The notes under the pieces are model-generated. The model worked only from the letters and a program-made list of their open reading frames with translations, did not search any database and was not told the origin of the DNA. Of a stretch of 64,000 bases of DNA, positions 38,270 through 57,751 are shown in pieces. Each line of letters opens with the position of its first letter. Position 1 is the first letter of the stretch. Origin of the DNA: an uncultured bacterium (GTDB lineage: Bacteria > Verrucomicrobiota > Kiritimatiellia > RFP12 > UBA1067); NCBI GenBank assembly GCA_902779865.1, contig CACZDG010000003.1:3200-67199 (forward strand). The letters run 5' to 3'. Position numbers and translations under genes: made by a program.

Positions 38270-41200
38270 ATGGGCATCGGCGGCGTTACATACACGGACG
38301 GCAGGGGACGCAAGCGGAACCTCGACGTAAACTCGCTGGAGGACTTCAAGGCGCAGTTCGGCGCGGCGGCGCGTACCCCGCGCCAGCGCGTCACGCCGCA
38401 GTTGCCTGCGCCCGGAGCGGCGCAGCCGCAGCCGAACGCCGCGCCCGACACCATGCCCGGCTCCGCCGTGGTGAACACGCGCAGCGGGCTTGCACTGAAA
38501 GGCGAGGAGAACGACCCCACGGTGCCGGGCAAGAAGGTGTACGGCTCGGTTAATGGCGTGAAGGGCTACCACACGCTTGACGAGATAGACCCGCTTGCCG
38601 GCGGCGGACGCCGCGTGGGGCATGACGGCTCCGTGAACGACGCAAGCGACGAGACGCCGGACGGCGATAGCGTACAGGGCTTTGACGGGCAGGGCTTCGA
38701 CGTGCCCGTGGCCTCGCGCATCGCGCTGACAGGCGGCGAGGACGGCGTTTACACGCTCTACCAGTTCACGCGCGATCTGCGGTTCTCCAGCGGACGCAGG
38801 GCTGGCGGGGTGTCCGCCGAGGAGAAGAAGGAAATCGGCACGATATTGATTCCCGCCGACGGCGCGGCGGACGCGCCCGACTACCCGTTCGCCGTGAAGA
38901 TGGTGTCTTCCGACAGCGCGGGGAACGAGAAGTACGGCATCTACCTTCCCCCGAACATCCTCTACGTCGCGGACGAGCAGCCCGACTTCACCACGGAGCT
39001 CAACGCCGTGCAGGACATGTCTGCATGGTACGAACTCCCCGACGGCCATAACTACGGCCCCGTGTACCTCCACGTCACGCTGCCATACGACGAAGAGCCG
39101 GTAACTGGCGAGACGGAGGGCGGGCACCATGACGCGGAGGCGGAGATCGTCACGGCGGCGGACGAACCCGGCGAACACGACCTCTACATAGAGATAGCAG
39201 ACATTGGAGACGATGGCGTCGTGCAGAAGGTTGTCGGTTCGCTTGTGATAGGCAAGAGCGCGGACGGCGACGACGCAAGCATCGCCGTGAGCAAGGAGGA
39301 CATTCCCGCGACATCTGCGACAGATCCCGAAGGCGAACACCCGGCAGGCGTCCAGCTCACTTTCACGCCAAAGGTGAATGGCAAGGCAGACTCCCGTAAT
39401 CCCGCCGTAACGGCGGCGTTGTACAACGGCGCGGACGGAGCGGACGCGGGACTTGAGATGTCCACCACAACGCCAGCGGATCCCGGAGGGCTTCACCCGA
39501 ACGGCGGAACAACCATTGTTTTGCAGCCGAAGAAGGACGGCGAGGATGACGGCCAGCCTACGGAGGTGACGGTATGGAACGGCGATGACGGCGATGACGG
39601 GGATGATGGCGCAGACGCAGGCATAACCGTCACGACTACGCCCATAAACCCCGACACCGACCATCCCAACGGTGGCACGACACTCACGTTTCAGCCCACA
39701 AAGGACGGCCAGCCCGATGGACAGCCGACGGAAATCAATGTAATCAACGGCCTAGATGGAAACAACGCGGCGGCGGCGACGGTCACGGTAGGCACCACGA
39801 CTACGGTGGCGTCAACGGAGAACGCGGAAGTCACGAACAGCGGTACAACCAGTGCGGCAATACTGAACTTCAAGATACCGCGTGGCGCAGATGGCGCGGA
39901 CAGCACCGTGCCGGGGCCGCAGGGCGTGGGCATATCGAACGTCTCCAGCGGAACGCCCACGTCGAGCGGTGGCTATACGACGACGCCCGTCACGGTCACG
40001 CTCACGAACAACACCACGGCAAGTTTCAACGTAACGGCAAAGGACGGCACGGACGGCGCGGACAGCACAGTGCCGGGACCTGCCAATTCGATAACGGTTT
40101 CACATACGTCCATTACCGGCGGACGCACCGTGACGATTACGCCGGAGACGGGCACGGCGGACTCGTTCGACGTAATGGATGGCGTGTCGCCCACGGCCTC
40201 GGTGACGAAAAGCGGCAAGACGGCGACGATAATAATCACCGACAAGAACGGCACGACGACGCAGACGGTCTCGGACGGCAAGGACGCGACGGTCGAGATT
40301 GACAAGACGAGTGCGCCTGTCTCAAGTGGACACACGGGCACGAGGATAACGTTCAAGGCGAAGTCCGGCGGCGTCGTCACCGACACCGAAGTCGTCGATG
40401 TGTACGATGGCGTGGACGGCAGTCCCGCGTCTGCAACCCCACTATCCAACAGTGCGCCCGAGACGCCGGTGCTCGACCATTCCCGTTCGACACCGGGCCG
40501 GGCGTTGGCAGGCACGTCCAACGCGGCAGCGCGTGCGGACCATGTTCATAAGCTGCCGAATACCGTCGTTGACACGGTGAACGACCAGACCGTGGCTGGG
40601 GAAAAGATATTCAGGGAAAAGATTGAGGTCGTGCCATCCGACAATGCGGCGTGGCATGGCGTGTACAGGGCGAACTACATCCAGCTCCAGAGCGGCGGGG
40701 ACACGGGGAACATGGGGCTGTCGTTCTACAAGACCAGCGACCTCACAAAGCCCGACCTCGGCACGTACATGGCGTTTCTCATCTGCTATTACGAGTCCGG
40801 GACCATGGAGCTGGGCACCAACGCCAACGGCGGCGGGAATCTCGTCTTGTCGGTCGGCAACGCCAACAAGAACATCTCACTGCTGGCCACAGGGAAGGGC
40901 AGCAAAATCCTCCTGTCAGCAAAGGCCGGCAACGGGGTGGAGCTGAACGCCGTCAACACGGACGCCGTGCAAACAACGCTGAAGGCCGTGGCCGCGATGG
41001 GGTGGGTGAACGACAAGTTCCTGCGCAAGACGGACGCGGTGCTGTCGTTGCAGGGCGAGGGGCAGAATCCCGTCAAGGTCAAGGGCGCGGTCAAGCTCGT
41101 GGGCGGACAGAGCGACACGGGGCACGTCCCCGTCAACGTGGCAAGCCCGACATCGCAAACCGGCGACACGATTACGATAGCCGTCCCCGTGGGAACCGGC

Positions 41201-42427
41201 CACGACGTGGCGGCACGGGGGGACCATACCCACAACTACGTCACTCCGAGCCAGCTCACTGGCTACGTCACCATCGCCACCGCGCAGACGGTGACGGGAG
41301 ACAAGACTTTCACCAAGCCGATCAACGTGGAGGCTGTCGCGTCTGGCGTCACGGGGAAAGCGGTTTACTCCTCCAACGCCATCCAGCTCCGCCCGGTATC
41401 AGACAGCTACGACATGTGGCTGAACTTCTACAAGCCGGGGACGGAGGGGCAGGGATCGGGCTTCGGCCTGCCGATGGCGTACCTCACGTGCAATTCGACA
41501 AGCGGAAGCGTATCGCTGGGCACGGCCGCGTACGGCGGGCACGTCACGGTGGGTCCGGGCGTTGATTCGCCGTCCAAAAACCTGTACCTCCGCGCAGATG
41601 GTTCCGAAGGGCGGGTCGTCCTGCGTGCGGCAGCGGCCAACGACGTGGTGCTGGACAAAACACCCACGCAAAGCGTGGACACGTCGTCGAGGTCCGTCGT
41701 CACTACGGGCTGGGTGAACTCCCACTTCACTGCCGGAAGCAACATCTCGATCACCGACGGCAGCGACGGCACGAAGGTCATTGCCGCCACGGTCCAGAAG
41801 GGCGACCCCGGCGCGGCGGCGGGGTTCGGCACGCCGACGGCGACGGCGACGTCGCTTTCCAGCACGGCGCAGCCGACTGTGGAGGTGACGGCAAGCGGCG
41901 CGAACACGGCGAAGGTGTTTGCGTTCGCGTTCGGCATCCCCAGAGGGGAGAAGGGCGACCCCGGCGCGGACGGCAAGGACGGCAAGGACGGCGCGCCAGG
42001 CGCAACGGGACCGCAAGGCCCGAAAGGCGACAAGGGCGACAAGGGCGATCCAGGGGAGGACGGTGAGGACGGCGCGCAAGGGCCGCGAGGACTGCAGGGC
42101 GCAACGGGACCGCAAGGCCCTAAAGGCGACAAGGGCGACAAGGGCGACACGGGCGACAAGGGCGACACGGGTGAAACCGGCGCGCAAGGGCCGCGAGGAC
42201 TGCAGGGCGCAACGGGACCGCAAGGCCCTAAAGGCGACAAGGGCGATTCTGCGGAACTTCCCAATATAAACGTGGTGATCAATGTCGCTCTCAATTACGA
42301 TGAAAGCAGCCACAAGTTCACGATGACCTTGACGAAGAAAAATCTCAAGACTGGAGCCGAAACGACGGAAGGCCCGACGACCGTATTCACCGCCGTTTCC
42401 CACGACACCGCATACGGGAGTAACTGA
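38270..42427 (+). CDS. 1385-aa tail fibre with DG-rich beta repeats, two paralogous modules and a collagen-like G-X-Y tract
   Basis: Repeated ...DG.DGADSTVPGP... segments. AARADHVHKLP and AARGDHTHNYV modules. About 105 residues of GXY (GEKGDPGADGKDGKDGAPGATGPQGPKGDKGD...). Confidence 0.8.
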   Translation: MGIGGVTYTDGRGRKRNLDVNSLEDFKAQFGAAARTPRQRVTPQLPAPGAAQPQPNAAPDTMPGSAVVNTRSGLALKGEENDPTVPGKKVYGSVNGVKGYHTLDEIDPLAGGGRRVGHDGSVNDASDETPDGDSVQGFDGQGFDVPVASRIALTGGEDGVYTLYQFTRDLRFSSGRRAGGVSAEEKKEIGTILIPADGAADAPDYPFAVKMVSSDSAGNEKYGIYLPPNILYVADEQPDFTTELNAVQDMSAWYELPDGHNYGPVYLHVTLPYDEEPVTGETEGGHHDAEAEIVTAADEPGEHDLYIEIADIGDDGVVQKVVGSLVIGKSADGDDASIAVSKEDIPATSATDPEGEHPAGVQLTFTPKVNGKADSRNPAVTAALYNGADGADAGLEMSTTTPADPGGLHPNGGTTIVLQPKKDGEDDGQPTEVTVWNGDDGDDGDDGADAGITVTTTPINPDTDHPNGGTTLTFQPTKDGQPDGQPTEINVINGLDGNNAAAATVTVGTTTTVASTENAEVTNSGTTSAAILNFKIPRGADGADSTVPGPQGVGISNVSSGTPTSSGGYTTTPVTVTLTNNTTASFNVTAKDGTDGADSTVPGPANSITVSHTSITGGRTVTITPETGTADSFDVMDGVSPTASVTKSGKTATIIITDKNGTTTQTVSDGKDATVEIDKTSAPVSSGHTGTRITFKAKSGGVVTDTEVVDVYDGVDGSPASATPLSNSAPETPVLDHSRSTPGRALAGTSNAAARADHVHKLPNTVVDTVNDQTVAGEKIFREKIEVVPSDNAAWHGVYRANYIQLQSGGDTGNMGLSFYKTSDLTKPDLGTYMAFLICYYESGTMELGTNANGGGNLVLSVGNANKNISLLATGKGSKILLSAKAGNGVELNAVNTDAVQTTLKAVAAMGWVNDKFLRKTDAVLSLQGEGQNPVKVKGAVKLVGGQSDTGHVPVNVASPTSQTGDTITIAVPVGTGHDVAARGDHTHNYVTPSQLTGYVTIATAQTVTGDKTFTKPINVEAVASGVTGKAVYSSNAIQLRPVSDSYDMWLNFYKPGTEGQGSGFGLPMAYLTCNSTSGSVSLGTAAYGGHVTVGPGVDSPSKNLYLRADGSEGRVVLRAAAANDVVLDKTPTQSVDTSSRSVVTTGWVNSHFTAGSNISITDGSDGTKVIAATVQKGDPGAAAGFGTPTATATSLSSTAQPTVEVTASGANTAKVFAFAFGIPRGEKGDPGADGKDGKDGAPGATGPQGPKGDKGDKGDPGEDGEDGAQGPRGLQGATGPQGPKGDKGDKGDTGDKGDTGETGAQGPRGLQGATGPQGPKGDKGDSAELPNINVVINVALNYDESSHKFTMTLTKKNLKTGAETTEGPTTVFTAVSHDTAYGSN
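42070..42246 (+). repeat. perfect 69-bp direct repeat (42070-42138 and 42178-42246) inside the collagen-like tract
   Basis: Read directly. Copies are offset by 108 bp, so the repeat is in frame. Confidence 0.9.
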
Positions 42428-44284: not shown

Positions 44285-47200
44285 ATGCAGCAGATTTTCC
44301 ACATGCGCGGCGAGAACGGCAAGGACTATGACGTTCCCGAGAACGAGATGGAGGAGTTCAAGCAGTATGTGCCGAACGCCATGCGCGTCAACTCGCACTT
44401 CGGGAAGAACGGGAAGACATACGACGTTCCCGAAAACGAGACGGAGGAGTTCAAGCAGTATGTGCCCGACGCGCAGCCGATGCGCCGCTACTCCTTCTCC
44501 GACGGCTCCACCCGCGACTTCACCGTGCCGGAGCTTGCGAAGTTCCTGCGCTCCGACGAATACCGCAAGGGCGAGAGGTACGCCAAGGACAGGGAGGCGG
44601 ACGAAAAGGCGATGGCCGACTGGCAGCGCAGGCGCGACGCGGCGCAGGCCGCCGTGCCGTCGGAGTTGCAGCCAAGGGGTTTCGGCTCCGCGCTGACCCG
44701 CAACATGCTGTCGGCGGAGGGCATACGCGAAACGGCGGAAGACAGTCCTTCCGCGTGGCTCTACGGCTTTTTCAACGATGTTGCAAACTCGTTCGTCGGC
44801 GGCATAGGCAGCGGAAGCGGCAAAATCACCGAAGCCACGGGGCACCTCATCGGCAACAACGCCGTCGGCAACGCGCTCGTGGAAGAAGGCCGCGCGGGAC
44901 AGCAGGCCATCAGACAGGCGCTACCCACGGACATGGCCCCGAAGACGGGCAACGCCGTGGTGGACAAGGTGGCGGACGTAGGCAGGGGCGTGGCGAGCGT
45001 GACGGGCGAGTTCCTGCCAGCCGCCATTCCCGGCGTAGGGCAGGCATACGCCGCAAGTACGCTAAGTGCTGGGGCCGTGAACCGCATGAACCAGGTGTAC
45101 GACGCCGCGAAGGGAAACGGCTTTTCGGACGCGGCCGCGAGCTCGCTTGCATTTGGCGCGGGCGCGGTGGACGCCTTGCAGAACATCCTTCTGATGAAGG
45201 GTTTTAAGGGCATTTGGAACGGCGCGGAGAAACAGGCGGCGGACGCCGTGAAGCAGTCGCTGGTGAAGAAACTTACGGTCGATACGCTCAAGACAGGCGC
45301 AACGATGGGCGCGGGCGGCATGGCACAGGACGTGGTGGACCAGAACGTCGGCATCGACAGGGAGGGCAACGTGAGCGCGGTGCTCCCCTACGACATACGC
45401 CGCACGGCGGAGGTGGGGATTGATCAGTTCCTCGAAGGAGGGGCGTTCCACCTCGTCAACACGGGTGTACATGCGGTGAAGAGACGCATAATAGACGTAA
45501 AGTGGGAGGACGACGCAAGAAGCGATGGCGCGGAGGCGGCGCGACGCGCACTTGACGCGCCGGAGGGACGCGCCCTCGTCATGTGCAACAACCCGGAAGC
45601 CGCCAAGAAGATTCTTGAGGCGCGGTCGCAGGGCAAGGACGTTAGCCGAAAGATGCTGGAGGATTTGGGCATTCCCGTGGACGTCGCGCCAAGCAAGACG
45701 GACAGAAACGCGCTTGCGGACGCGATGATTGGCGACTACCGCGCCTACAAGGAGTGGCAGAGGCGGCTTCCAGACGCGGAGCAGTCAGCCGCGCTGAACA
45801 CGGAGATCGCCGGGATAGGCGTGGAGGTCGAAGAGAATGGCGAGATGACGGAGACGGCGTCGCTCATCCGCCAGGGGGTGCTTTCCAAAATCAAGGACGC
45901 GAAGGAACTTGACGACCCGAAGCGCAGGGCGGACTTGGTGTACGAGGCGGCGAAGGGGCTTCTGGGCGACAACGTGGGAATCGAGGGTCAGCCGCTCACG
46001 CCGCCGGAGCCCCCCGCAGAAACGCCGAAAAACGCCCCTGTGAGCGCTCCGCCGCCGGAAGGCACAACCACGCCGCCGGAACCGGCGGAGCCGCCACAGC
46101 CAGCGGAAGCCCCCGAATCCGCCACGCCAGAGCCCAAGCCGGAAACGCCGAGTCCCGTGTCGCCTGCGGAAGCTGGCGAAACCCCTGCGGAGCACTCGCG
46201 GCGAATCATCGAAGAGGGGCGCAGGAACCTTGCCGCGTCCCCGAACGCGAAGACCGTCAAGACCGGCAAGAAGGACGCCACCGCCACCATCTACACGCCG
46301 ACGGACGGCACTGGCGCGTTCAAGGTGACGAGAAAGACGTTCACGCACGGGTTCCGCGGCCCCAACAGGGCCGACAACGAGGCGGTGAGCCAGCACCTGG
46401 GCGAAACGCTCGACGGCTCGCTCGCACTCCCGGAGCATGGCACGGACGGCACGCGCTTCCGCATGTCTGCGGTCAAGATCGGCGGCGAGGACGCCCACGT
46501 GCTTTTCACGATCAACAAGGCCGGGAGCGTGACGGACGTTGACGTGCTGAAGGGCCTGAACGCAAAACGAAACCCCGAAGGGACAAAGCTAAGCACGTCA
46601 GAGACGTTGGCCGCCGGTACCTTCGAGGTGTCGGAAGGCAGTATAGCAGATTTCGACCGCGTTTGGCAAGAGCAATTCAAGCCCGGAATAACGAAGCCGA
46701 AAACCGTCAAGGCCGACCCGAAGAAGGCCGCGAAGGCCGTTGAGGGTTTCGTGGCGACCGACCCCACGCGCAAGACGCTGATGCACGTCCACCACGACCA
46801 CGAGGAAGGCGTGGCCGTCGCGACAGACGGGCGCGTCTTGATCGCCACGAAACACGGCTACGACAAGAACGCAAAGGACGACCCCGAAGCGCCCTACCCC
46901 AACTGGCGGCAGGTAATCCCGGACTACGACGGCAAGACGTACAGGACATTCACGGAAGAGTACGTGGAGGGCAAGGGCAAGTGGAGGAAAAAGGCCGTCG
47001 ATCTTCCCGTCCACACGCTGGAGACCGACCCCGCCGCCGTATCGGCCGCCTGCAAGAAGGCCGCGTCCCTCGCAAAGGCCGTAGGGCACGAAGGCGCGGT
47101 GTACGCCTCGCTCGAACTCCCGGACGGCGGGCGTGTCATGATGGACCCCGCCTACCTCCGCAAGGTGGCGGACGCGATGGGCGCGAACGGCATCACGGAG

Positions 47201-50200
47201 ATCAGGGCCGTCGCGCCGAACAGGCCGATCCTCGCGAAAAACGCGGACACCACCATCGTCGCCATGCCGCTGCGCGGAGGCACGACCGATGCGCCCACGG
47301 GACGCGTCTCCGGCAACCCGCTCGTCATCGACGCCATGACGGGCCGCATTCTGACAGCGCCGGAGCGCAGCGACAACACGGCGATGACAAGCCGCAAGTG
47401 GGCGGACGAGCTGAAAAAGGAGATCGCGCGCGCCCGCGACGACGCGATGGCCGACGCGCGCACCGAAGACCTGTTCAAGAACATCGCGGGCGCATGGAAG
47501 CGCGGCGAGACGGACGCGAAGGCCGTGTTCGACGGCTATTCGGGCGATGGCGCGTGGGAAAAGCTCCCGCAGACGGAGCGGACGCGGTTCGAGGAGTGGT
47601 TCGCGCTGAAGGACGAGAACGCCCTCGCGGAGAAAGTCGCCGAATACGTCGCCGACCAGTTCCCAGACCTCAACCGCTGGCGCAAGGACCTTCCGCGCGA
47701 GGTCGCGAAAATCGAGAAGCGAATCGCAGCCGAGGACGAGATAGACGCCCTCATGGCCGGCGAGCCGCCGCCGGCCCCCGCCCCCAAGCCCGTCAACAAG
47801 GGCAAGGGCAAGGAAGCCGTCCAGGCGGCAAAGGCGCTCGGTTCGCCGGACGCGGCAAGCCCGCTCCGCCCCGCGCCGAAGGGCGCAAAGCTTGTGCAGG
47901 GCGAGTTCGACGGCATGGGCGGCGAGACGGCGGCAAGGCCGGAGGCTACCGCGCTGAAAGGCAAGTCTGACCTCTCCAAACCGGACAACGTAATAGCCCT
48001 TCGCGAATATGTGAAGGGTGTCACGCCCACGCCCATTCCACAAAGACTTTCTGACGGGAAGCCAAAGACCGCACTTGAATGGTTCGAGGCAAACATGGTA
48101 GGCAAGACGTTCTCGTTCGACATTCCGGGGTACGGGCACCGCGAGTTCACCGTGAAGCCCGGACACATAGGAACTCTAGTTTGCAGGGGCGGGCGGAATG
48201 CCGACGGCACAAGGATCGTGAAAGGACGCATTGCAAAGGCGAACGGAGACATAGCCCGCGCGTTTGAGATGGTTCGCAATGGCGAGGTTTCCGAAGCGGA
48301 CGTGGAGGGATGGGATCCCCTTCGCGCAAAATCACTCCCTCTCGTTCCAGAGGTGTTCAAGTCGTTTGATGTGGCCCTTCACGAAAAAGACGCACACGGA
48401 AACGACATCGTAATCCTCGCTAAGAAGTTCGTGAACAAGAAGGGTCGCCCAAACGTCGTCGTCATGAAGTTGGTAAACGACAACGTTTCGATAGGTCCGC
48501 TGTCATCGCACGTTGGCGACCTGACTTTCTCCTGGCTGAAAAATAAAGACCTCCTCCTCACGGATGAGGGGAAGGTCTATGACGGGGCTGCGAATGACTC
48601 CGCAAGTCGCAGTCCACTTAAAGGGGATAACGCGGAGGGCAACTCCCCTGAAAGCGGCGATATGATACCACGTCCCGGCGGCGAAGTCAAGGGCGGCGCG
48701 GAAAATTCGCAAGAGACGAAAAAGACGCCAGACCCGCAGAACGCCGCCCGCAACCCGTCCGCGCTACGCGACCCCGCGTTCGTGAAGTGGGCGAAATCGA
48801 AGGGACGCGCCCCGACGCCCTTCGCGCGACGCGCCTACGACGCCGCGCAGCTCCGCGCCGCCGTCCCCCTCTACCGCAACGTCTTCCCCGACATGAACAT
48901 CGTGATCCACGACAAGGTGGAGGATCCCGCGAAGTGGACGGCCGACCACCCCGACGGAACGCAGAAGATGATTGGCGGCGTAGGCGGAGCGTCGAACATG
49001 GGCATAAAGGGAGCGGCAGACGCCGAAGCGCTGGAAAAGGCCGGCAAGGACCGCGAGGAAATCTGGCGCAAGACAGGCTGGTGGCGTGCCAAGGATGGCA
49101 AGTGGCGCTTCGAGCTGCCGTCCACCAAGATGAAGGACGCAAGGGCGCTTTATGCTGCGCTCATCGAAGGACACAACGAGACGACGCTCGGAAAGATACT
49201 GGACGCACCCGAACTGTTCGAGGCGTATCCGCAGCTGAAAGACACGAAGATCATCCTTTCGCCGGAGCATAACGACGAAACTGGAGGATGGTATAACCGT
49301 ATCAAGAACGAAATCGTCCTCTTCGACGCCGGCCTCGTTTCCTTAAAGGACATGCCGTCACACGAAAGGGATCTTCGAGACACCTACCAGAGAGTGCTTG
49401 ATTCGGACGAGTTCGTCCGCCGTAGATTCGCAGACATGGATGCGTTCGGCATCGAGCATGGCACAGTCGAGGAGGAGCGCGAGTACGCGAGGTGGTGGAT
49501 CGAACGGCAGGATAAAGGAATCGCCAGGACCAACGAGACGAAAATCCGCGACCTGGCGAACGACAGGAGGGTTTGGAGCGTATTCGGAAAGATAATCCAC
49601 GAGGTACAGCATGCAGTGCAGCACATCGAGGGCTTCGCGACGGGCGCAAGCGGCAATGAGGATGGATACAGCCGTTTCGCCGGCGAGGTTGAGGCACGCA
49701 ATGCTGCGCGGCGTGAAGCCATGTCGCCGGAGGAGCGCGCGGCCACGCCGCCATGGGCGAGCGAAGATGTTGCGGAGGGCACGCAGATAATACGACGCAT
49801 GATCGTCGATCCGAAGAGCGGCGAAGTCCTCGGATGGTACACGCCGCAGTTCAAGGAGGTGCACCTCAACCCCGGCGCGACCGTGGAGACGCTCGCCCAC
49901 GAGATGCTCCACGCCGTGCAGGACTGGGCCAAGACGAACAGCCCCAAGCTCGCGAAGGCGCTGGACGACATCGCCCGCGACTGCCCGGAACGGCTCAAGA
50001 AGCGCATCATGCGCGCATACGGCGTAGTCTCGCCGGAGACCATCATGAAGGAGTGGGGCGCGTTCAACTTCATGGGCGGCCCGGAGGGCGGCAGGGGCAG
50101 GGGCGGCGCGGCCCTACGCGACGAGCTGGCCAAGCGCGAGAACGCCGCGTGGCTCGGGCGGTTCTGGGACGCGGCGAAGGACGCATGGAAGGACATGGCC

Positions 50201-53119
50201 GCGAAGATGGGCGGCAACCGCATCGACCTCGACGCGATAGACTCCAAGACCCCGCAGGAGGCCATGGACTTCCTCGCCCGCGCGTTCGCCGAGGGCGGCA
50301 CCGTCGGCAAGGCCAATCCCCCCGGCAAGTCCGTGCGCCCCGCAATCGACATGACGAAGCCGCTCTCCTTCGCTGAGAAGTGGGACGTCAACCTCCACGA
50401 CTACCGCAGCCCCCTGAAGTGGCTGCGCGACGAGATGGCGAAGCGCGGCTCGTCGTTCGCCGACGACACCGACTTCTACGAGGCCGCACGGCTCCAGAAG
50501 GGATACGACCAGGCCGCCGTCAACGACGCGAACCGCCGCCTGAAGGAGTACACCGGCAAGCTCAAGAAGCTCGGCGTGAAGCACGAGGAGGTCGTGGAGT
50601 TCATGCAGGCCCAGGCCGCCAAGGACCGCAACGCCATGATCCTGGAGAAGTTCGGGCGCGAGAACGGCTCCGGCATGACGGACGCGGAGGCCGCGCGCAC
50701 GATCAAGGCGTTCGAGGACGCGGGCAAGGGCGACGCCCTGCGCGAGATCTCGGACTTCCTCCTCGACATGCAGCGCGAGGGATTGCAGTACCGCGTCGAA
50801 ACGGGGCTCCTCTCCGCAGAGGACGCGCAGAGGATGGCCGACCGCGAGCCGTTCCACGTCCCCTTCCGCTCCGCCGTCGATCCAGAGACCGGCGACTACG
50901 TGCAGTGGGGCAGCGACAAGGCCCTCGAAAAGGCCGAGTTCAAGGAGGCGAAGGGCCGCAAGACGCTCGCCGACGACGTGGTCGGCTGGATGTTCTCCGA
51001 GTTCATCGACGCCCACACTCGCGGCAACGAGAACCGCATACGCAAGATGGTCGCCGACGCGATGCGGCTCAACGCGAAGTCCGGCGTCGGCAAGATACTC
51101 AAGGGCGCCCGCAAGCAGAGCGCATACGACTTCTCCGCCGGAGAGTACAAGACCGGCGCGGACGGCGACGGGCGCACGGGCGACAAGGCGAAGACCGCGA
51201 TTGTGGACGATCCGCGCTTCCGCGAATCCCGCAAGAACGGCGACGGCGGGCGAAAGAACGTCCTCGCCTTCAAGGAGGGAGGGCGGACGCACTACATCGA
51301 GTTCGCCGAGGGCGAGCGCGGCGAGCGGTTGCAGGCCGCCGTCAACGGGCGCGACCTCAAGAGCATGGGCAAGCTGTGGAAGAGGGGAATGCGCTTCTGG
51401 TCGTCCACCGCAACCGAGTGGGCGCCCACGTTCGCGCTGCGCAACTTCGCGGCGGACAACATCGACGTGTTCGGCAACTACATCGGCGAGCACGGGATCG
51501 TCAAGGGCTCGGCGTCCTACGCGCGGCACCTGAAGAACGCCGCCGCGCTCACCCCCGCCATAACGCGGTACATCGCCACCGGCGACATCCCGCAGGGCGT
51601 CGGCGGCGAGTGGATAAGGCGCTACGAGCAGTCCGGCGGCTTGATCGCGGGCTACGCATCCGAGGGCTACGGCGAGATCACGGCGAAGATCGACGCCGAG
51701 ATCGCCAAAAGCGGCAGGTCGAAAGGCGCGGCAATCATAAACGCCGTGAAAACAGCAATAACGTCACCTTTGAAATCCGTCCGGAAGGTGCTGGGGAAAG
51801 TCTGGTATCCGATTGACGTCCTGAACCGCTACGCCGAGCTGCTGACGCGCGTGTCCGCGTTCAGGACGCAGTGCGAGAACGGCATGACCGACCACAAGGC
51901 CGCGCTCTGGAGCCGCGAATCGACAGTTGACTTCAACGAGAAGGGAAACTTCACCGGCATCACCAACGGCCTGTGGATGTTCTCCAACTCCACGCTCGGC
52001 GCGTCCGCCCGCCAGCTGAAGAGCATTTTCAAGTCGAAATACGGCTGGCAGACCGTCGCCGCATTCGTCGGCTACGGACTCGCCGAGGGACTGCTCGAAG
52101 CCCTGATGAACGGCGACGACGAGGAGCGCGAGGCGAAGGGCGAGGGCGCGGGAAAGGACGTGTCCGAGTACACCCGCGCCAACTCGCTCTACGTGCGCAG
52201 GGGAGGCAGGGTGTACCGCGTCCCGTTCCACGCCGGGCCGTTCTCATACATCAAGTACGCAGGGAACTGCGCGGCACGCGTCATGCTGGGGAAGATGAAG
52301 CCGGAGGACGCCGCGAAGGAACTTGGTTGGGAGGCCCTGTCGCAGCTCTTCCACTACACGGGAGTCGGAGACGTGAACATGCAGTCCCAGAGCGGGAGGT
52401 TCGCGGACGATGCCGCCACATTCGCCGGAACGGCCGCGCCGTCCCTCGCGCAGCCGCTCGTGCAGGGCGCGTTCAACATCGACCACGCGGGGCGCAGCAT
52501 CTACAACGAGGGCTTCCCCGGCGACAGGACGCCCCGCTCCGCGCAGGGCCGCCGCTCCACGCCAGGATGGGCGAAGGACGCGGCGGCGTGGCTCAACGAG
52601 GCCACGCGCTCCGAGGGGCACGAGACCGGCTACATCGACCTCCCGCCGGAGATAATCAAGATGGCCGGCGAGGCCGTCGGAAAGAACCTCCTCCGCGACG
52701 TGATGAACGCCGGAACGGTCTGCGCCATGGCGTTCGGCGACGAGAAGTACGACGTGCGCAACGTCCCCGTCGCCCGCGACTTCGTGCGCGCCGTGGACGG
52801 CAACGACCGCCGCTACAACGACGCCAGGAAGGAATACGAGGCCAACGCGGACTACCTCAAAAAGCACGCCCGCGAGATGTCCGCAGAGGAGCGCAGGGCC
52901 TACGTCGAGAAGTTCCCCCACGCCGCGTTCGTCGCCAAGGGCAGGCAGCGGCTGGACGGCCTGGAGACGGAGATACGCCGCCTCCGCAAGATGGAGGACG
53001 GCTTCGCGTTCGTGAAAGGAAAAGCCGTTCCCCGCGAATGGCCGGAGGAACGGCTTGAGGCGTTCAGGAAGCGCCGCCGCGAGCTTCAGGCGCTGTTTCT
53101 CAAGGAGATGGGCATGTAG
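44285..53119 (+). CDS. 2944-aa polyvalent virion protein (beta-clamp-like module, two HExxH modules, long helical C-terminal part)
   Basis: Single uninterrupted ORF with consistent G/C third positions. Motifs are detailed in the findings. Confidence 0.85.
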   Translation: MQQIFHMRGENGKDYDVPENEMEEFKQYVPNAMRVNSHFGKNGKTYDVPENETEEFKQYVPDAQPMRRYSFSDGSTRDFTVPELAKFLRSDEYRKGERYAKDREADEKAMADWQRRRDAAQAAVPSELQPRGFGSALTRNMLSAEGIRETAEDSPSAWLYGFFNDVANSFVGGIGSGSGKITEATGHLIGNNAVGNALVEEGRAGQQAIRQALPTDMAPKTGNAVVDKVADVGRGVASVTGEFLPAAIPGVGQAYAASTLSAGAVNRMNQVYDAAKGNGFSDAAASSLAFGAGAVDALQNILLMKGFKGIWNGAEKQAADAVKQSLVKKLTVDTLKTGATMGAGGMAQDVVDQNVGIDREGNVSAVLPYDIRRTAEVGIDQFLEGGAFHLVNTGVHAVKRRIIDVKWEDDARSDGAEAARRALDAPEGRALVMCNNPEAAKKILEARSQGKDVSRKMLEDLGIPVDVAPSKTDRNALADAMIGDYRAYKEWQRRLPDAEQSAALNTEIAGIGVEVEENGEMTETASLIRQGVLSKIKDAKELDDPKRRADLVYEAAKGLLGDNVGIEGQPLTPPEPPAETPKNAPVSAPPPEGTTTPPEPAEPPQPAEAPESATPEPKPETPSPVSPAEAGETPAEHSRRIIEEGRRNLAASPNAKTVKTGKKDATATIYTPTDGTGAFKVTRKTFTHGFRGPNRADNEAVSQHLGETLDGSLALPEHGTDGTRFRMSAVKIGGEDAHVLFTINKAGSVTDVDVLKGLNAKRNPEGTKLSTSETLAAGTFEVSEGSIADFDRVWQEQFKPGITKPKTVKADPKKAAKAVEGFVATDPTRKTLMHVHHDHEEGVAVATDGRVLIATKHGYDKNAKDDPEAPYPNWRQVIPDYDGKTYRTFTEEYVEGKGKWRKKAVDLPVHTLETDPAAVSAACKKAASLAKAVGHEGAVYASLELPDGGRVMMDPAYLRKVADAMGANGITEIRAVAPNRPILAKNADTTIVAMPLRGGTTDAPTGRVSGNPLVIDAMTGRILTAPERSDNTAMTSRKWADELKKEIARARDDAMADARTEDLFKNIAGAWKRGETDAKAVFDGYSGDGAWEKLPQTERTRFEEWFALKDENALAEKVAEYVADQFPDLNRWRKDLPREVAKIEKRIAAEDEIDALMAGEPPPAPAPKPVNKGKGKEAVQAAKALGSPDAASPLRPAPKGAKLVQGEFDGMGGETAARPEATALKGKSDLSKPDNVIALREYVKGVTPTPIPQRLSDGKPKTALEWFEANMVGKTFSFDIPGYGHREFTVKPGHIGTLVCRGGRNADGTRIVKGRIAKANGDIARAFEMVRNGEVSEADVEGWDPLRAKSLPLVPEVFKSFDVALHEKDAHGNDIVILAKKFVNKKGRPNVVVMKLVNDNVSIGPLSSHVGDLTFSWLKNKDLLLTDEGKVYDGAANDSASRSPLKGDNAEGNSPESGDMIPRPGGEVKGGAENSQETKKTPDPQNAARNPSALRDPAFVKWAKSKGRAPTPFARRAYDAAQLRAAVPLYRNVFPDMNIVIHDKVEDPAKWTADHPDGTQKMIGGVGGASNMGIKGAADAEALEKAGKDREEIWRKTGWWRAKDGKWRFELPSTKMKDARALYAALIEGHNETTLGKILDAPELFEAYPQLKDTKIILSPEHNDETGGWYNRIKNEIVLFDAGLVSLKDMPSHERDLRDTYQRVLDSDEFVRRRFADMDAFGIEHGTVEEEREYARWWIERQDKGIARTNETKIRDLANDRRVWSVFGKIIHEVQHAVQHIEGFATGASGNEDGYSRFAGEVEARNAARREAMSPEERAATPPWASEDVAEGTQIIRRMIVDPKSGEVLGWYTPQFKEVHLNPGATVETLAHEMLHAVQDWAKTNSPKLAKALDDIARDCPERLKKRIMRAYGVVSPETIMKEWGAFNFMGGPEGGRGRGGAALRDELAKRENAAWLGRFWDAAKDAWKDMAAKMGGNRIDLDAIDSKTPQEAMDFLARAFAEGGTVGKANPPGKSVRPAIDMTKPLSFAEKWDVNLHDYRSPLKWLRDEMAKRGSSFADDTDFYEAARLQKGYDQAAVNDANRRLKEYTGKLKKLGVKHEEVVEFMQAQAAKDRNAMILEKFGRENGSGMTDAEAARTIKAFEDAGKGDALREISDFLLDMQREGLQYRVETGLLSAEDAQRMADREPFHVPFRSAVDPETGDYVQWGSDKALEKAEFKEAKGRKTLADDVVGWMFSEFIDAHTRGNENRIRKMVADAMRLNAKSGVGKILKGARKQSAYDFSAGEYKTGADGDGRTGDKAKTAIVDDPRFRESRKNGDGGRKNVLAFKEGGRTHYIEFAEGERGERLQAAVNGRDLKSMGKLWKRGMRFWSSTATEWAPTFALRNFAADNIDVFGNYIGEHGIVKGSASYARHLKNAAALTPAITRYIATGDIPQGVGGEWIRRYEQSGGLIAGYASEGYGEITAKIDAEIAKSGRSKGAAIINAVKTAITSPLKSVRKVLGKVWYPIDVLNRYAELLTRVSAFRTQCENGMTDHKAALWSRESTVDFNEKGNFTGITNGLWMFSNSTLGASARQLKSIFKSKYGWQTVAAFVGYGLAEGLLEALMNGDDEEREAKGEGAGKDVSEYTRANSLYVRRGGRVYRVPFHAGPFSYIKYAGNCAARVMLGKMKPEDAAKELGWEALSQLFHYTGVGDVNMQSQSGRFADDAATFAGTAAPSLAQPLVQGAFNIDHAGRSIYNEGFPGDRTPRSAQGRRSTPGWAKDAAAWLNEATRSEGHETGYIDLPPEIIKMAGEAVGKNLLRDVMNAGTVCAMAFGDEKYDVRNVPVARDFVRAVDGNDRRYNDARKEYEANADYLKKHAREMSAEERRAYVEKFPHAAFVAKGRQRLDGLETEIRRLRKMEDGFAFVKGKAVPREWPEERLEAFRKRRRELQALFLKEMGM

Positions 53120-54704
53120 CCCTGTCCGTCCCCTCCTCCATCATCCTGACGCGGCGCGCGCGCATCGTCGCGTAGTCCACGGCGATGCGCCCCGCGAGCA
53201 GGTTCCGCGCCCACCCCGCCGGGGCCATGCCGTACGCCCACGCCGCCTTCCGCGCCTTCACGGCGTGGTACGCCGAGAGCCTTACGCCCCCGACGTCCAC
53301 GCCGTCAGGCCACTTCCGGCAGAGCGCCTCCACCTCGCGCCAGTCGCCGTCCGTGAACGGAACGGCGTCCAGCGCGGCGATCAGGCGCTCCTCGTCCGTC
53401 GGAGGGCGGCGGCTCACCGCGCGCCCCCCCTTCCCCGACACGCTGGCATGCCAGGCACGGAGCGCGCGCCGCGTCTCCCGCAGCCGCTCGTGCGCCTTGC
53501 ACCCGCGCAGGATCCCGCCAACGAGCCGCAGCGGCGTGACGTTCGCCGTCCCGGCCGCCCGCGCCACGCGGTAGCGCATCACGCGGTCCATCCGCACCCC
53601 GCACACGGACGCGAACTCCGGCGAGCCGTCCTTCGACTCCTCCGCGATCTTCGCGTAGTCGTCGCCGCAGAGCGCGGAGGGCGGCAGCGAGGCGTTCACC
53701 GCCTCCCACCCCACGCGGTCCATCTCGCCCTCGATCACGCGCACCGCCTCGCGCACGGCCTGCACCGGCGCCGCGTCGGCGGGCGCGGGCAGGGCGGCCG
53801 GGGCGCCCTGCGTCCCCTGCGCCCCGGCGAGCGCGTGGAACACGAGGTCCGCCGTCGCCGCCTCCTCGCCCTTGCGGTACTCCACGAACGCCTCCGCGCC
53901 CGTCACGCAGTCGCGCCGCACCATGAACACGGCCCCCGTCCCCAGCAGGACCGCCCGCCGCGCCTCGTCCGAGCCGACGCACATCAGCCCGAAGGCGTGG
54001 AGCGGGTGCCACACGCCGGGGAACGACGGCATCGGCGCGATCACGCACGGAAGCCGCCCAGCCGTCCCCAGGAGCCGCGCCGTCGCGATGTCCGCCCCGA
54101 CGGGACGGAGCCACGCCTCCGCCACCGAGCGCTCCACGAACGCGGCCACCCCGCCGAGGTCGTCGCGCCCGAGGACGCGCCGGAGGTTCGACTCCAGGGC
54201 GCGGCGCACCGCCTCCGCGTCCGCCTCCTCGTAGGGGAGGATGTGCGGCGCGGACTTCAGCACATACCCGCGCAGAAGCCGCTCCTTCAGCGTCCTCGTC
54301 GCCCACTGACGGAACTGGACGCCGCGCCGCGAGTTCACCCGGTAGCCGACCGAGATTATCGCGTCGAGGTTGTAGCACCGCACCGTCCGCGTCACCGTGC
54401 GTTTCCCCTCGATGTCAACTATTTGAAATTCTTGAATAGTTGATTTTCTGTCTAGTTCACCATCATCGAATATGTTCTTGAGGTGTGTGTTGATATTCGG
54501 CGTGTTGCACCCAAACAGCACTGCCATTTGCTTTTGCGTGAGCCAGACGGTCTCGCCGTCCATCCGCACATTTATCTTCGCGGCGTCCGTCGGCTGATAG
54601 ACGACGACCTCGCCGTTGCTGTTCCCGTCGAGCACGGCGGCGGAGCCGTCGCCCGTATTCTGCGCGTTTGTATAGCGGGCGCGCGCCGCGTTTTTCTTGC
54701 TCAT
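53100..54704 (-). CDS. RhuM-family N-terminal domain fused to ~380-aa unknown Ala/Arg-rich domain
   Basis: TVWLTQKQMAVLFG...HLKNIFDDGEL...YNLDAIISVGYRVNSRRGVQFRQWATRTLKERLLRGY is the RhuM core. The C-terminal frame is confirmed by near-uniform G/C third positions. Confidence 0.75.
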   Translation of the reverse strand: MSKKNAARARYTNAQNTGDGSAAVLDGNSNGEVVVYQPTDAAKINVRMDGETVWLTQKQMAVLFGCNTPNINTHLKNIFDDGELDRKSTIQEFQIVDIEGKRTVTRTVRCYNLDAIISVGYRVNSRRGVQFRQWATRTLKERLLRGYVLKSAPHILPYEEADAEAVRRALESNLRRVLGRDDLGGVAAFVERSVAEAWLRPVGADIATARLLGTAGRLPCVIAPMPSFPGVWHPLHAFGLMCVGSDEARRAVLLGTGAVFMVRRDCVTGAEAFVEYRKGEEAATADLVFHALAGAQGTQGAPAALPAPADAAPVQAVREAVRVIEGEMDRVGWEAVNASLPPSALCGDDYAKIAEESKDGSPEFASVCGVRMDRVMRYRVARAAGTANVTPLRLVGGILRGCKAHERLRETRRALRAWHASVSGKGGRAVSRRPPTDEERLIAALDAVPFTDGDWREVEALCRKWPDGVDVGGVRLSAYHAVKARKAAWAYGMAPAGWARNLLAGRIAVDYATMRARRVRMMEEGTDRATCPSP

Positions 54705-54873
54705 GGTATCTCAACTCCATTCGCAGTTTAGACAAAAGCCCCGCCGAATGTGGTTGAGATACGCGCCAACGGTTGACGCGGGCCGACATCCGGCAGGGCA
54801 ACGGTTGAATTGCCGTTAGTTCCGTGCGAGGAACAGGTATCTCAACTCCTATTATTCCTCGGAACGACACAAA

Positions 54874-54902
54874 GTATATCACACCTCGCCCCGCCGCGCA
54901 AG
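54874..54902 (-). promoter_or_regulatory. promoter TTGCGC-17-TGaTATACT for the RhuM-fusion gene
   Basis: -10 at 54874-54879, -35 at 54897-54902 (reverse-complement coordinates). Tandem TTGGTGCGC repeats lie just upstream. Confidence 0.5.
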
Positions 54903-54949: not shown

Positions 54950-55546
54950 CTACGACGCAGACGGTTTTCTTCCGTTGCAGTTCTTCTTCGCGGCGATAGA
55001 TTGCTTGGCGCGTGCGACAAAATCGGCTATCTCCGTGTTGTTGTCGGCGACATTGCTTTTGTCGCACAACTTGCCGAACCAAGCACGAAATGCGGCGTAC
55101 TTTATACACCCTTTCAGGCGCACGATGGCGCAGATATAGCAAAGAAACGGCCATCCGGCTGCAATCAGCACCGGAAGAAAGAGCAGGGGCGACCATTTGG
55201 CCACTGCGGGACAATCAACCCACCCGGACCAGAGCAGGAACACGCCGACCAAGGCAAACACGACGTCAAGCACTCGCCAGAACAGACCCGGTGAGTTCTC
55301 TCCCTTTTCCTGGCGGCGCTTGATTGCGACAGCTCTCTTCCCTATTCGCCGTATGTCGTCGTCCTTGATGTATGAGCGCAGTTCTTCGCTGAAGTTGTTT
55401 GCGATGATCTTGTCCGGATCGACCTCGATTCCGCTGAAGAACCGGCTCATGATGGCAGGCGCGACAGGCAGCAGAAGGTTTGCGCCTATCGAGACGCAAA
55501 CCACATCTGAAGCATGGGCAACGAAGTTGAACGCGGGAAGGCTCAT
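54950..55546 (-). CDS. 198-aa membrane protein (soluble N-domain, 2 TM helices, basic tail)
   Basis: GGAGG RBS. TM helices FWRVLDVVFALVGVFLLWSGWV and LLFLPVLIAAGWPFLCYICAIV. Lower GC3 than the surroundings. Confidence 0.7.
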   Translation of the reverse strand: MSLPAFNFVAHASDVVCVSIGANLLLPVAPAIMSRFFSGIEVDPDKIIANNFSEELRSYIKDDDIRRIGKRAVAIKRRQEKGENSPGLFWRVLDVVFALVGVFLLWSGWVDCPAVAKWSPLLFLPVLIAAGWPFLCYICAIVRLKGCIKYAAFRAWFGKLCDKSNVADNNTEIADFVARAKQSIAAKKNCNGRKPSAS

Positions 55547-55563
55547 CCTGTCTCAACGGCCTC

Positions 55564-56088
55564 CTATGCGACCTTCAGCATTGCCTGCGCAAGTTCGCGC
55601 AGCAGCCTGGCCGTGTCGGGGGCGTTCACGCAGGCGATTGCCTTCTTGTCGCCGTCATCCCTCTCGAAGCGGTACATCTTGTCGTCGAACACGGCGAAGT
55701 GCGAACCGAGCTGCGCGAACTCGCGCGACGTATGGATCGTGTCGGCCCCGTGCTCGCGAAGGGCGGCGGCCACGACAGAGTCCGGCGGAACGTCTTCGGG
55801 ATGCTGCACGATGAAGCGCACGTCCACTCCGCGCGAGATCGCCGCGCGCACGGCGTCGGCAAGGCCCTTGCCCCCCCATACGGTGTTGGAGATGCGGCCG
55901 CAGTAGACATAGGCGGACTTGTTCGCGTGCGCGAACATTTCTTCGAGCAGAATTCTCGCGTGCGCGGGGCTGCTGTTCTCAATGAGGTTCGGCGAATCAA
56001 TGGCAATGAAACGCCGCACCATATACCGGAACGGATCCATGTCGCTATGGATTTCGTCGCTCATCGTTTGCTCCTCTAGTTTCTCCAT
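55564..56088 (-). CDS. hypothetical cytoplasmic protein, possible degenerate PLD/Nuc-fold (start 56088 leaderless, or 56064)
   Basis: ...AHARILLEEMFAHANKSAYVYCGRIS...AISRGVDVRFIV...GSHFAVFDDKMY. The family assignment is weak. Confidence 0.7.
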   Translation of the reverse strand: MEKLEEQTMSDEIHSDMDPFRYMVRRFIAIDSPNLIENSSPAHARILLEEMFAHANKSAYVYCGRISNTVWGGKGLADAVRAAISRGVDVRFIVQHPEDVPPDSVVAAALREHGADTIHTSREFAQLGSHFAVFDDKMYRFERDDGDKKAIACVNAPDTARLLRELAQAMLKVA

Positions 56089-56095
56089 GGCGTCT

Positions 56096-56125
56096 ATTGT
56101 ACCACGACGCCGCCCCCGGGGTCAA
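56096..56125 (-). promoter_or_regulatory. promoter TTGACC-18-TGgTACAAT, 7 nt from the ATG at 56088
   Basis: -10 at 56096-56101, TGG at 56102-56104, -35 at 56120-56125. An ACCGAAAAA/TTTTTCGGT palindrome at 56130-56150 lies just upstream. Confidence 0.55.
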
Positions 56126-56457
56126 GCGCACCGAAAAAGTTTTTTTCGGTCGCCAACCCGTTCAAATCCACCGTCTTGAAATTCAACGTTTTCAAAAACG
56201 CGCCCGGCCGGCGGCTGTCTGGCCGACCATCTGGACGGCGGTTTTCAAGGTGATTCAATCCGCACACGTTGAACGCGAAGAGCCTGTCTGTACAAGGCCG
56301 AGAAGCGATTCTTCAACACACATATATATGTTTTCGTTCCCTCGCGCGTACGCGCGCGTAGTAGTATTTACCCAAATATACTTTAAGTATATTTGGGAAA
56401 TGCTACGTGTTCTTCTTGGTTTTTTATATACGCGCGCGCGAGGTTGAAAACGGGCGT

Positions 56458-57615
56458 TCACCCCATTTTCAGCATGGCTGGCGTCGCCGCCTTTATGATC
56501 TCGTCCTCGGCCGCCTCGAAGGAGTAGCGGTCGGTGATGCGCAGGCCAAGCGTGTGCCCGAGAACCGCGCTTGCGGCGTCGATGCCGAAGCGGCGGCGTA
56601 TCTCCGTGGCGCACGTGTGGCGCAGCTGGTTCGGGTGCCAGTGCGGCACGTCCGCGCGCTCTGCGGCGCGGGAGATCGCTCGCTGGTACGCCTCGACCTT
56701 CCACTTCTCGCCCACGCTGCGCCCGACGGTCTGCCTGGGCGAGAACACGTAGCCGTCGCCCTCGTACTTCGCGAGTATGGCCTGCGCCTTCGGCCCGAAC
56801 ACGATCACGCGCGGCTTGTTGCGGTGCTTGTTCTTGTGGTTCCCCGGCCTGTACGCCCAGATCTTGCCGCGCCTCTCGACGAGCGGCCACGCGAGCTGGC
56901 ACATCTCGTCCGGCCTCGCGCCGCACAGCCGCTGGACGCGCACCATGTCGGCGAGCGGCTCGGCCAGCTCCGCGCACGTCTTCTTCACGTCCGCGTCCGG
57001 CACGGCGGCCACGGGGCTGCACTCCTTCACGTTGCCGCGTCCGCGCTTCAGCTGCGAGATCGCGGTGGCCTCCGCCTTCACCTGCGCGGAGATTATGCGC
57101 TCGTCGAGGGCCCACGCGAACATGCGCTTGACGAAACCGAGGTACTTGTTCACGGTGGTGCGCACGTACCCCTTCGCGGCGAGCGCGTTGCGGTACTCTA
57201 TCATGTCGGGGTGCGTCATTGTCTCGACGGGGCGCGTCCCGAACATTTCGCGGAAGAGCCTCATGCCGCGAACGCTGTCGGCGGCCTCCTTCGACCCGCC
57301 GGAGTAGTACGTCTCCGCGTGTGCGGCCCACTTGTCGATCACGTCGTTCACGGTGAACGCGGGCGCGTCGATTCCCGCGTCCGCCTGCCTTGTCATGTTC
57401 TCCCACAGACGCCACGCCGCGCTCTCGGCAATCGACCTGGTGCTTGCACTTGCGGGTATTCTCTCGCCGGTGTACGGCATTGTGAGGACGTGGTCTTTTC
57501 TTGTTTTTTCGCCAGGATTCGCGACTCGCCAGTGCCACGCGCCGTGGGACTCCCACAGCGTGCCGGGCAGGGCGGCCCGCCTTCTCGTGTCAGCGTTTTT
57601 GTCAGCACCTGTCAT
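56458..57615 (-). CDS. int: tyrosine recombinase / phage integrase
   Basis: C-terminal HPNQLRHTCAT...VLGHT...RY catalytic motifs. Start set at MTGADKN (GGAGA RBS). Adjacent to the att repeat and tRNA. Confidence 0.85.
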   Translation of the reverse strand: MTGADKNADTRRRAALPGTLWESHGAWHWRVANPGEKTRKDHVLTMPYTGERIPASASTRSIAESAAWRLWENMTRQADAGIDAPAFTVNDVIDKWAAHAETYYSGGSKEAADSVRGMRLFREMFGTRPVETMTHPDMIEYRNALAAKGYVRTTVNKYLGFVKRMFAWALDERIISAQVKAEATAISQLKRGRGNVKECSPVAAVPDADVKKTCAELAEPLADMVRVQRLCGARPDEMCQLAWPLVERRGKIWAYRPGNHKNKHRNKPRVIVFGPKAQAILAKYEGDGYVFSPRQTVGRSVGEKWKVEAYQRAISRAAERADVPHWHPNQLRHTCATEIRRRFGIDAASAVLGHTLGLRITDRYSFEAAEDEIIKAATPAMLKMG

Positions 57616-57676
57616 TTCATGTGTCTCCGTTTCATGCCCTAAGTGCGTTTCGCCCAATGTTTGCAAGGGTTTTCGA

Positions 57677-57723
57677 TGGAGCCGGCAGAGGGATTCGAAC
57701 CCCCGACCAGCGGTTTACAAAAC
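57677..57723. repeat. att repeat, right copy (forms the 3' part of the intact tRNA-Thr)
   Basis: Identical to 8340-8386. Confidence 0.95.
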
Positions 57724-57751
57724 CGCTGCGCTACCACTACGCTATACCGGC
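57677..57751 (-). tRNA. tRNA-Thr (anticodon UGU), 75 nt with encoded CCA
   Basis: Hand-folded. Acceptor GCCGGTA/TGCCGGC, D arm GCGT-AGTGGTA-GCGC, anticodon arm GCGGT-TTTGTAA-ACCGC, T arm GGGGG-TTCGAAT-CCCTC, discriminator T, then CCA. Confidence 0.9.

Follow-up and report, generated by a model that had tools for sequence, protein, structure and literature searches.

A PLD-fold protein without the HKD motif is paired with a membrane protein in the integrase-proximal cargo of a Kiritimatiellae prophage

In the 64,000-nt stretch of DNA analysed here (the window; contig CACZDG010000003.1 of an uncultured bacterium of the class Kiritimatiellia, positions 3,200 to 67,199), the integrase gene of a prophage is accompanied by a two-gene cassette, in which an acidic cytoplasmic protein of 166 amino acids (aa) with a phospholipase D (PLD) fold (gene 1; 55564-56064, minus strand; delineated by its open reading frame, homologues, AlphaFold2 model and Foldseek matches) is followed by a 198-aa basic membrane protein (gene 2; 54950-55546, minus strand; taken from its open reading frame). 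We found that gene 1 has lost the catalytic HKD motif, that its relatives are joined by a membrane-protein gene in every neighbourhood inspected, and that the cassettes of its close family keep a common promoter and reside in mobile or cargo contexts. The pair belongs to a large uncharacterised family, and this family is much larger than the sequence of the window alone could reveal. We regard it as a reasonable candidate for a phage-exclusion or toxin-like module (a role in defence being plausible), and we tentatively favour, at somewhat below an even chance, its interpretation as a regulated membrane-effector module with an exclusion or toxin-antitoxin-like action. The initial annotation, which was made from the letters of the window and had singled out the cassette as a candidate defence pair, was right in its two reading frames and in the peptides that it quoted from them (174 aa and 198 aa, 17 nt apart).

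A PLD fold devoid of the HKD motif

Gene 1 lacks any hydrophobic segment, in agreement with the initial annotation (which had reported no transmembrane helix), and the proposal of a single-domain PLD/Nuc fold in which the motif has degenerated is borne out by structural modelling, Foldseek and profile comparison alike. It has 28 close homologues, and its AlphaFold2 model (built with a 24-sequence alignment) reached a predicted local distance difference test (pLDDT) score of 87.6 and a predicted template modelling (TM) score (pTM) of 0.82. When this model was compared with the PDB by Foldseek, 55 matches were recovered at E<=0.001, nearly all of them PLD-superfamily structures; the probability was 1.0 for Nuc (1byr, E 1.7e-6), mouse Zucchini (4ggk), NucT (6ehi) and PLD3, and further matches comprised PLD1/2, the Escherichia coli phosphatidylserine synthase PssA and, in TrmBL2 and FAM83, PLD-like domains that are not catalytic. 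Matches to Nuc, Zucchini, PLD3, TrmBL2 and FAM83 spanned E-values of 1e-6 to 1e-4. Among viral models the best matches were giant-virus PLD-domain proteins and poxvirus envelope proteins of the F13 type. On the sequence level alone, a profile from the wider alignment (A3) reached PLD3 and Nuc in the PDB at a borderline E of 0.0012, and the Pfam model PLDc_2 (PF13091) matched only the N-terminal half of gene 1 (14.5 bits, E 0.033; gathering threshold 27 bits). Gene 1 shares with Nuc (from plasmid pKM101), NucT, Zucchini/PLD6 and PLD3 the fold and the succession of its strands and helices (TM-score ~0.55-0.6, Foldseek E 1.7e-6 to 1e-4), and its size is similar to that of Nuc, which acts as a homodimer. 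Unlike these single-domain PLD nucleases, it has its catalytic residues replaced, is acidic and is always paired with a membrane protein.

The catalytic motif of the superfamily, HxK(x)4D(x)6GSxN, is absent from gene 1 in alignments to Zucchini and PLD3. Its FAVFD corresponds to FAIVD in Zucchini and to FWVVD in PLD3, which places His130 in the Lys position of HxK; this histidine is invariant in the close family and replaced by Asn in most of the wider one. Furthermore, the column of the catalytic His is occupied by G, D, N, A or T, and an invariant glutamate (Glu142) stands where GSxN has its Gly. The initial annotation had therefore recognised correctly that the HKD motif is not intact, but had set it in the wrong register, with Ala (instead of His130) in place of the lysine. 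As judged from these alignments, gene 1 is a PLD fold but no HKD enzyme.

The loss of the motif is accompanied by a residue set of the family's own. Across 56 sequences (23-87% identity to the window protein) N38, R140 and E142 are invariant, D135 and F131 are kept in 55, H43 in 54 and C63 in 51, and in the alignment the conserved residues fall at the ends of strands and at the motif positions from which PLD enzymes build their active site. Since this set is strictly conserved, we consider that gene 1 is not a decayed relic. The DUF1669 domain of FAM83, the C-terminal domain of TrmBL2 and poxvirus F13 resemble it in keeping the PLD fold with a degenerate motif; such non-catalytic PLD-like domains provide a precedent for scaffold or binding modules. 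They differ from gene 1 in organism and in partners, and no specific sequence relationship to it was found, the invariant N...H...C...D..R.E pattern being particular to the gene 1 family. A role as excisionase was rejected on the basis of the 166-aa PLD fold and the lack of a DNA-binding domain.

Obligate pairing with a membrane protein

The extent of the family was assessed by searching 1.84 billion representative proteins with a profile of the close family (A1), which recovered 421 protein clusters at E<=1e-10, a number that rises to 1360 at E<=1e-3; the top 150 all have lengths of 99-256 aa. The family has relatives in Proteobacteria and Bacteroidota. Some of these relatives bear the Pfam label DUF7931 (PF25559; e.g. 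P0177, E 4.9e-17) and, like gene 1, are followed by a membrane-protein gene. The DUF7931 model itself gives no hit to the window protein at E<=1, and scores its relatives at 17-26 bits (gathering threshold 27 bits).

A membrane-protein gene lies on the same strand directly after gene 1 in all 16 non-redundant loci whose neighbourhoods were checked (the window and L001, L007, L018, L020, L021, L022, L023, L025, L027, L030, L031, L033, L036, L045 and L046). The gap between the two genes ranges from -1 to 100 nt (14 loci measured), the pairing holds in relatives with only 20-33% identity, and a reverse look-up that started from gene 2 homologues arrived at the same arrangement. The partners are built alike: a hydrophobic or amphipathic stretch at the N terminus is followed by a charged linker, then by a membrane hairpin, in which LLP is often found, and lastly by a charged tail. 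Pairwise identities of gene 1 and gene 2 correlate (r=0.86, computed over non-independent pairs), with gene 2 diverging the faster of the two. The partner in L018 is homologous to gene 2 over its full length (hhalign probability 87%); beyond L018, homology of the partners was not detected by comparing the profile with single sequences, and it is the shared architecture alone that speaks for it. Moreover, in two contigs a second, paralogous pair lies no more than 2.2 kb from the first (L036, 3474-4702, minus strand; L037, 1022-2328, plus strand), its gene 1-like protein being matched by the A1 profile at E ~1e-30 and followed by a membrane protein. Four metagenome loci with 22-25% identity (L038-L041) showed no family match and were not counted as members.

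Gene 2 itself has 25 homologues, 23 of which were aligned. Conservation is highest in VVCVSIGANLLLPVAP (aa 15-30) near its N terminus, situated within a moderately hydrophobic helix (aa 8-33, Kyte-Doolittle 1.64), which is succeeded by a Lys/Arg-rich helical linker of ~55-60 residues, by a membrane hairpin with helices at aa ~92-110 and ~121-143 (~10 residues between them, and a conserved LWSGW...LLFLP signature) and by a charged, Lys/Arg-rich C-terminal helix. The two membrane helices and the basic tail of the initial annotation are thereby recovered, whereas its soluble domain of ~95 aa needs correction in view of the hydrophobic and conserved segment at aa 8-33. The protein has an isoelectric point of ~9.1, and by the positive-inside rule its linker and tail are predicted to be cytoplasmic. 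Its AlphaFold2 model is all-helical and of modest confidence (pLDDT 70.6); compared with the PDB by Foldseek, it gave no match at E<=0.001, and the top-ranking one (ExbB, E 1.2) was not relied on.

Gene 2 contains three segments that are hydrophobic and ends in a charged tail, which gives it a superficial resemblance to class I holins, and the pair could on these grounds be taken for a device of lysis timing that consists of a holin-like protein in the membrane and its regulator in the cytoplasm. Its length of 198 aa and its charged linker of 60 aa argue against this, as do the occurrence of the pair outside phages and the lack of any lysis-enzyme family among the scanned neighbours. The setting is likewise not that of a holin: the neighbours are the integrase and a RhuM-like gene, the orientation is opposite to that of the plus-strand phage genes, and the cassette has a promoter of its own. 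We consider lysis timing highly improbable.

Promoter, genomic context and candidate functions

The near-consensus promoter reported by the initial annotation is present at 56096-56125 (minus strand), with a -35 element TTGACC (56125-56120), an 18-nt spacer and an extended -10 element TGgTACAAT (56104-56096). It is the sole sigma-70-like match between 53000 and 57800 (4.8 kb), where 0.6 were expected; taken alone, this count of a single site is weak evidence. Homologous cassettes have the same element: in L001, L007, L020 and L021 the sequence TTG(C/A)nn-17/19-TGGTATAAT lies 25-35 nt before the start codon, and the conserved form is TTGnnn-17/19-TGGTAYAAT, while the remaining upstream DNA of these four loci does not align. 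The retention of the promoter amid non-aligning DNA indicates that the cassette travels with its own promoter and, as this is of the sigma-70 type, transcription would presumably take place in the lysogen. A 57-aa reading frame that overlies the promoter (56094-56267) was examined as a possible third gene and rejected, as it has no similarity to the 72-aa reading frame upstream of the pair in L001.

Two start codons had been considered for gene 1, the upstream ATG at 56088 (which would yield 174 aa) and the second ATG at 56064. In 21 of the 24 aligned homologues the protein is 163-167 aa long and starts with M-S/N-D/E at the second ATG, and the extension upstream of it is not conserved. In addition, a ribosome-binding site (GAGGAG, 56071-56076, minus strand, read from the sequence) precedes the second ATG by 6 nt, and the arrangement (G/A)AGGAGCAAAC(G/A)ATG recurs in L007 and L012. 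On account of the homologue lengths and of this GAGGAG/AAGGAG site we place the start at 56064, which gives the mRNA a leader of ~25 nt; the leaderless transcript envisaged previously is not supported. The site formerly noted before gene 2 exists (AGGAGG, 55560-55565, minus strand, read from the sequence), overlapping the stop codon of gene 1, yet its distance of 13 nt from the ATG is rather far. As for the GC content at third codon positions (GC3), said to be lower than in the flanking genes and suggestive of separate acquisition, the claim stands for gene 2 (0.68), but not for gene 1 (0.82), which falls within the flanking range (0.78-0.92).

In related phages, the pair of the close family occupies a variable, integrase-proximal cargo spot. 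The order in the window is integrase, pair, RhuM-like gene and then a convergent giant gene; L037 has the pair, the second paralogous pair, a RhuM gene and then a convergent LPD38 gene; L020 has the integrase and the pair, then a convergent minor-capsid/PBECR3 gene; and in L027 the pair stands alone before the convergent giant gene. Two paralogous pairs lie close together in L036, as they do in L037, and in L001 the pair is near an integrase, a RhuM gene and a NERD protein. The other cargo or conflict contexts comprise a phage in which the pair is placed between MuF and SSB genes (L030), a prophage in which it is found beside a Panacea toxin-antitoxin gene and an integrase (L023), a position between DUF4160/DUF2442 and Gp49/HTH toxin-antitoxin pairs (L007) and one beside a NotI restriction-modification system (L018). 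The contexts of L025 and L033 are ambiguous.

On the assumption that our favoured interpretation is accurate, the cassette would constitute an autonomous two-protein cargo module beside the integrase of a temperate Kiritimatiellae phage, in which gene 1 would be a regulator that binds a ligand or a partner, and no HKD hydrolase, and gene 2 a basic inner-membrane protein that faces the cytoplasm with nearly all of its length around a single hairpin. The charge complementarity of the two proteins (isoelectric points of ~5.9 for gene 1 and ~9.1 for gene 2) counts in favour of this interpretation. The two may form a complex, in which the PLD-like protein would restrain the membrane protein. A cue from an infecting phage would then cause gene 1 to release or activate gene 2, and gene 2 might then perturb the membrane, so that superinfecting phages would be excluded through abortive infection or the pair would act like a toxin-antitoxin system. 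A more far-reaching version of this proposal would have the family represent a widespread two-component conflict or immune class (hundreds of 50%-identity clusters in several phyla), in which an ancient PLD nuclease fold was turned into a sensor, its pocket (N38/H43/C63/D135/R140/E142) would recognise an infection-derived ligand, and a dedicated membrane-hairpin effector would be gated by it; we regard this version as rather doubtful.

The organisation recalls that of known exclusion systems. The Rex system of phage lambda (RexA/RexB) and gp30/gp31 of mycobacteriophage Butters are expressed from prophages and exclude other phages (PMC7542560, PMC12894663, PMC13434031), and both combine a cytoplasmic with a membrane protein, as gene 1 and gene 2 do, being the prophage pairs of this kind that are known best; Kiwa and Hailong are likewise two-gene systems with a membrane component. 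On the other hand, the folds, sizes and numbers of membrane helices of Rex, gp30/gp31, Kiwa and Hailong differ from those of the window pair, and hhalign comparisons with RexA, RexB, gp30 and gp31 gave probabilities of 0.2-0.35%, so that homology to RexAB or to gp30/gp31 was rejected and the likeness is one of layout only. Neither a mention of DUF7931 nor a description of a defence pair made of a PLD-like and a membrane protein was found in the literature searched.

Exclusion could also be achieved without cell death, in the manner of prophage superinfection exclusion (Sie) proteins, if gene 2 anchored gene 1 at the inner membrane and the complex blocked or bound incoming phage DNA or the injection machinery. 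Sie genes typically lie next to an integrase and have a promoter of their own, as the pair does, the closest structural relatives of gene 1 bind nucleic acid (the nucleases Nuc, NucT, Zucchini and PLD3), and a mostly cytoplasm-facing gene 2 could provide a docking platform. However, the gene 1 family is acidic to neutral (median isoelectric point 5.9) and has no catalytic residues, which is at odds with general DNA binding or cleavage, and gene 2 would reach beyond the cytoplasm with no more than ~10 residues. We judge this mode of action to be improbable.

The toxin-antitoxin neighbourhoods raise the further option of an addiction module that stabilises the mobile element and plays no anti-phage part, gene 2 being the toxin and gene 1 the antitoxin. 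It would account for two small co-directional genes in tight spacing with the putative neutraliser first, for their presence among other toxin-antitoxin pairs (L007, L023), for the opposite charges of the two proteins and for the paralogous pairs standing side by side in L036 and L037. Of the features of type II toxin-antitoxin systems, the gene layout is compatible (adjacent, co-directional, gaps of -1 to 100 nt). On the other side, gene 1 is a well-folded domain of 166 aa with conserved, pocket-like residues that suggest the sensing of a ligand over mere sequestration, and the Pfam scan detected no DNA-binding domain for autoregulation. An addiction module is, in our estimation, distinctly unlikely.

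Several observations weigh against the interpretation as a phage-directed effector module. Neither protein has a significant match in PADLOC-DB v2.0.0 (for gene 1 the only hit is a weak one, at E 0.019, to the PLD portion of MkoC, and for gene 2 there is none), which is in keeping with the earlier statement that the pair corresponds to no named defence system. The distant relatives and their partners gave only weak matches of PLD type in PADLOC (DrmC, MkoC), and scans of both proteins and of the distant relatives against Pfam, PHROGs and NCBIfam likewise returned nothing significant beyond weak PLD-type matches. A tblastn search with gene 1 and three distant relatives against 50,697 phage and 72,556 plasmid records gave no match. 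Moreover, a spirochaete member of the family lies between cytochrome c and ClpB, and an alphaproteobacterial one between a two-component system and ccm genes. Given such ordinary chromosomal settings of distant relatives, the family may have a physiological membrane function.

Under such a physiological alternative, the pair would be a membrane module, for example for the sensing of lipids or of envelope stress or for the scaffolding of other proteins, with a widespread cellular function and an occasional use as a phage fitness gene. Besides the housekeeping neighbours of distant members (those labelled DUF7931 included), it is favoured by the frequent action of PLD-fold proteins on or at membranes, PLD-family phospholipases and PssA being among the structural matches. 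The close family is nevertheless found almost only in prophages, by integrases or in toxin-antitoxin and restriction-modification neighbourhoods; its distribution is patchy (close relatives in 2 of 185,579 species genomes, with 2 loci returned from genomes, 9 from metagenomes and 3 from the viral collection) and gene 2 diverges fast, both features being typical of accessory conflict genes. We therefore view the physiological module as unlikely.

If the pair does exclude phages, bacterial immunity would gain a PLD pseudo-enzyme as a new sensor fold, together with a new family of membrane effectors, and a function would be assigned to many proteins annotated as hypothetical, part of DUF7931 included. 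If the function is physiological instead, a catalytically remodelled PLD fold that is so strictly coupled to a membrane hairpin would still represent uncharacterised cell biology. The family is compact (~165 + 190 aa) and brings its own promoter, which makes it easy to clone, and its relatives from Proteobacteria and Bacteroidota would be amenable to study in tractable hosts.

The prophage and its remaining features

The cassette belongs to a 49.3-kb prophage delimited by a 54-nt direct repeat with copies that are 96% identical, namely the attL core (8333-8386) and its partner, the attR core (57670-57723), which overlaps the 3' half of a tRNA-Thr gene (57677-57751, minus strand). Among its products are a helicase, a primase, a large terminase, a tail fibre, a tyrosine integrase (56458-57666, minus strand; Pfam Phage_integrase, E 1.2e-11) and a polyvalent protein of 2944 aa (44285-53119, plus strand) that contains LPD23 and LPD38 domains. 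Proceeding from the integrase along the minus strand, a 369-nt spacer, gene 1, gene 2, a 245-nt gap and a RhuM-like gene succeed one another, opposite to the plus-strand genes for replication, packaging and tail. The placement of the cassette between the virion-side genes and the integrase, with transcription in the opposite direction, had thus been read correctly, with the RhuM-like gene intervening before the 2944-aa gene. Identical or near-identical copies of the whole arrangement occur on many metagenome contigs, and the organism names attached to its relatives are those of Kiritimatiellae/Kiritimatiellia metagenome-assembled genomes only.

The RhuM-like cargo gene (534 aa; 53100-54704, minus strand; Pfam Virulence_RhuM 7e-22, PADLOC PDC-S05 1.8e-53) is absent beside the pair in L007, L020 and L027, and is therefore not an obligate partner of it. 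Its RhuM/PDC-S05 domain is confined to the N-terminal 150 residues and its GC-rich C-terminal part is unmatched. The split extends to composition: the N-terminal 160 codons have 58% GC (GC3 0.78), and the C-terminal 375 codons, which have no family match, have 76% GC (GC3 0.96). The gene and the convergent 2944-aa gene have 20 nt in common at their 3' ends, and in the 245-nt gap that separates the RhuM-like gene from gene 2 an extended -10-like element (TGATATACT, 54873-54881, minus strand) raises the possibility that the RhuM-like gene, too, has its own promoter. We also observed that the spirochaete DUF7931 member P0217 (L022, 6001-6540) has a weak PADLOC match to the C-terminal part of one PDC-S05 model (positions 166-300 of 306, E 0.002), a hint that a related PLD-like domain may be present in some candidate defence proteins of the RhuM type.

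Just 3' of the integrase stop codon, a GC-rich palindrome (GCGCGTACGCGCGCGT, 56344-56359) is followed by AT-rich DNA; the palindrome may serve as a terminator or be bound by a protein or other factor as a binding site, and a similar GC-rich alternating sequence is found upstream of the pair in L020. Repeats were observed in two of the large phage genes: the 5' end of the 2944-aa gene contains a duplicated 72-nt segment (44308-44379 and 44401-44472), and the gene for the 1385-aa tail fibre (38270-42427) contains collagen-like repeats with a 9-nt period (GKD/GPQ; 41953-42267, plus strand). Outside the prophage, a 23-nt unit (TCCTAGACTGGGGTGTAAGAGCC-like) occurs eight times in tandem at 770-953, and this array has the appearance of iterons or binding sites.

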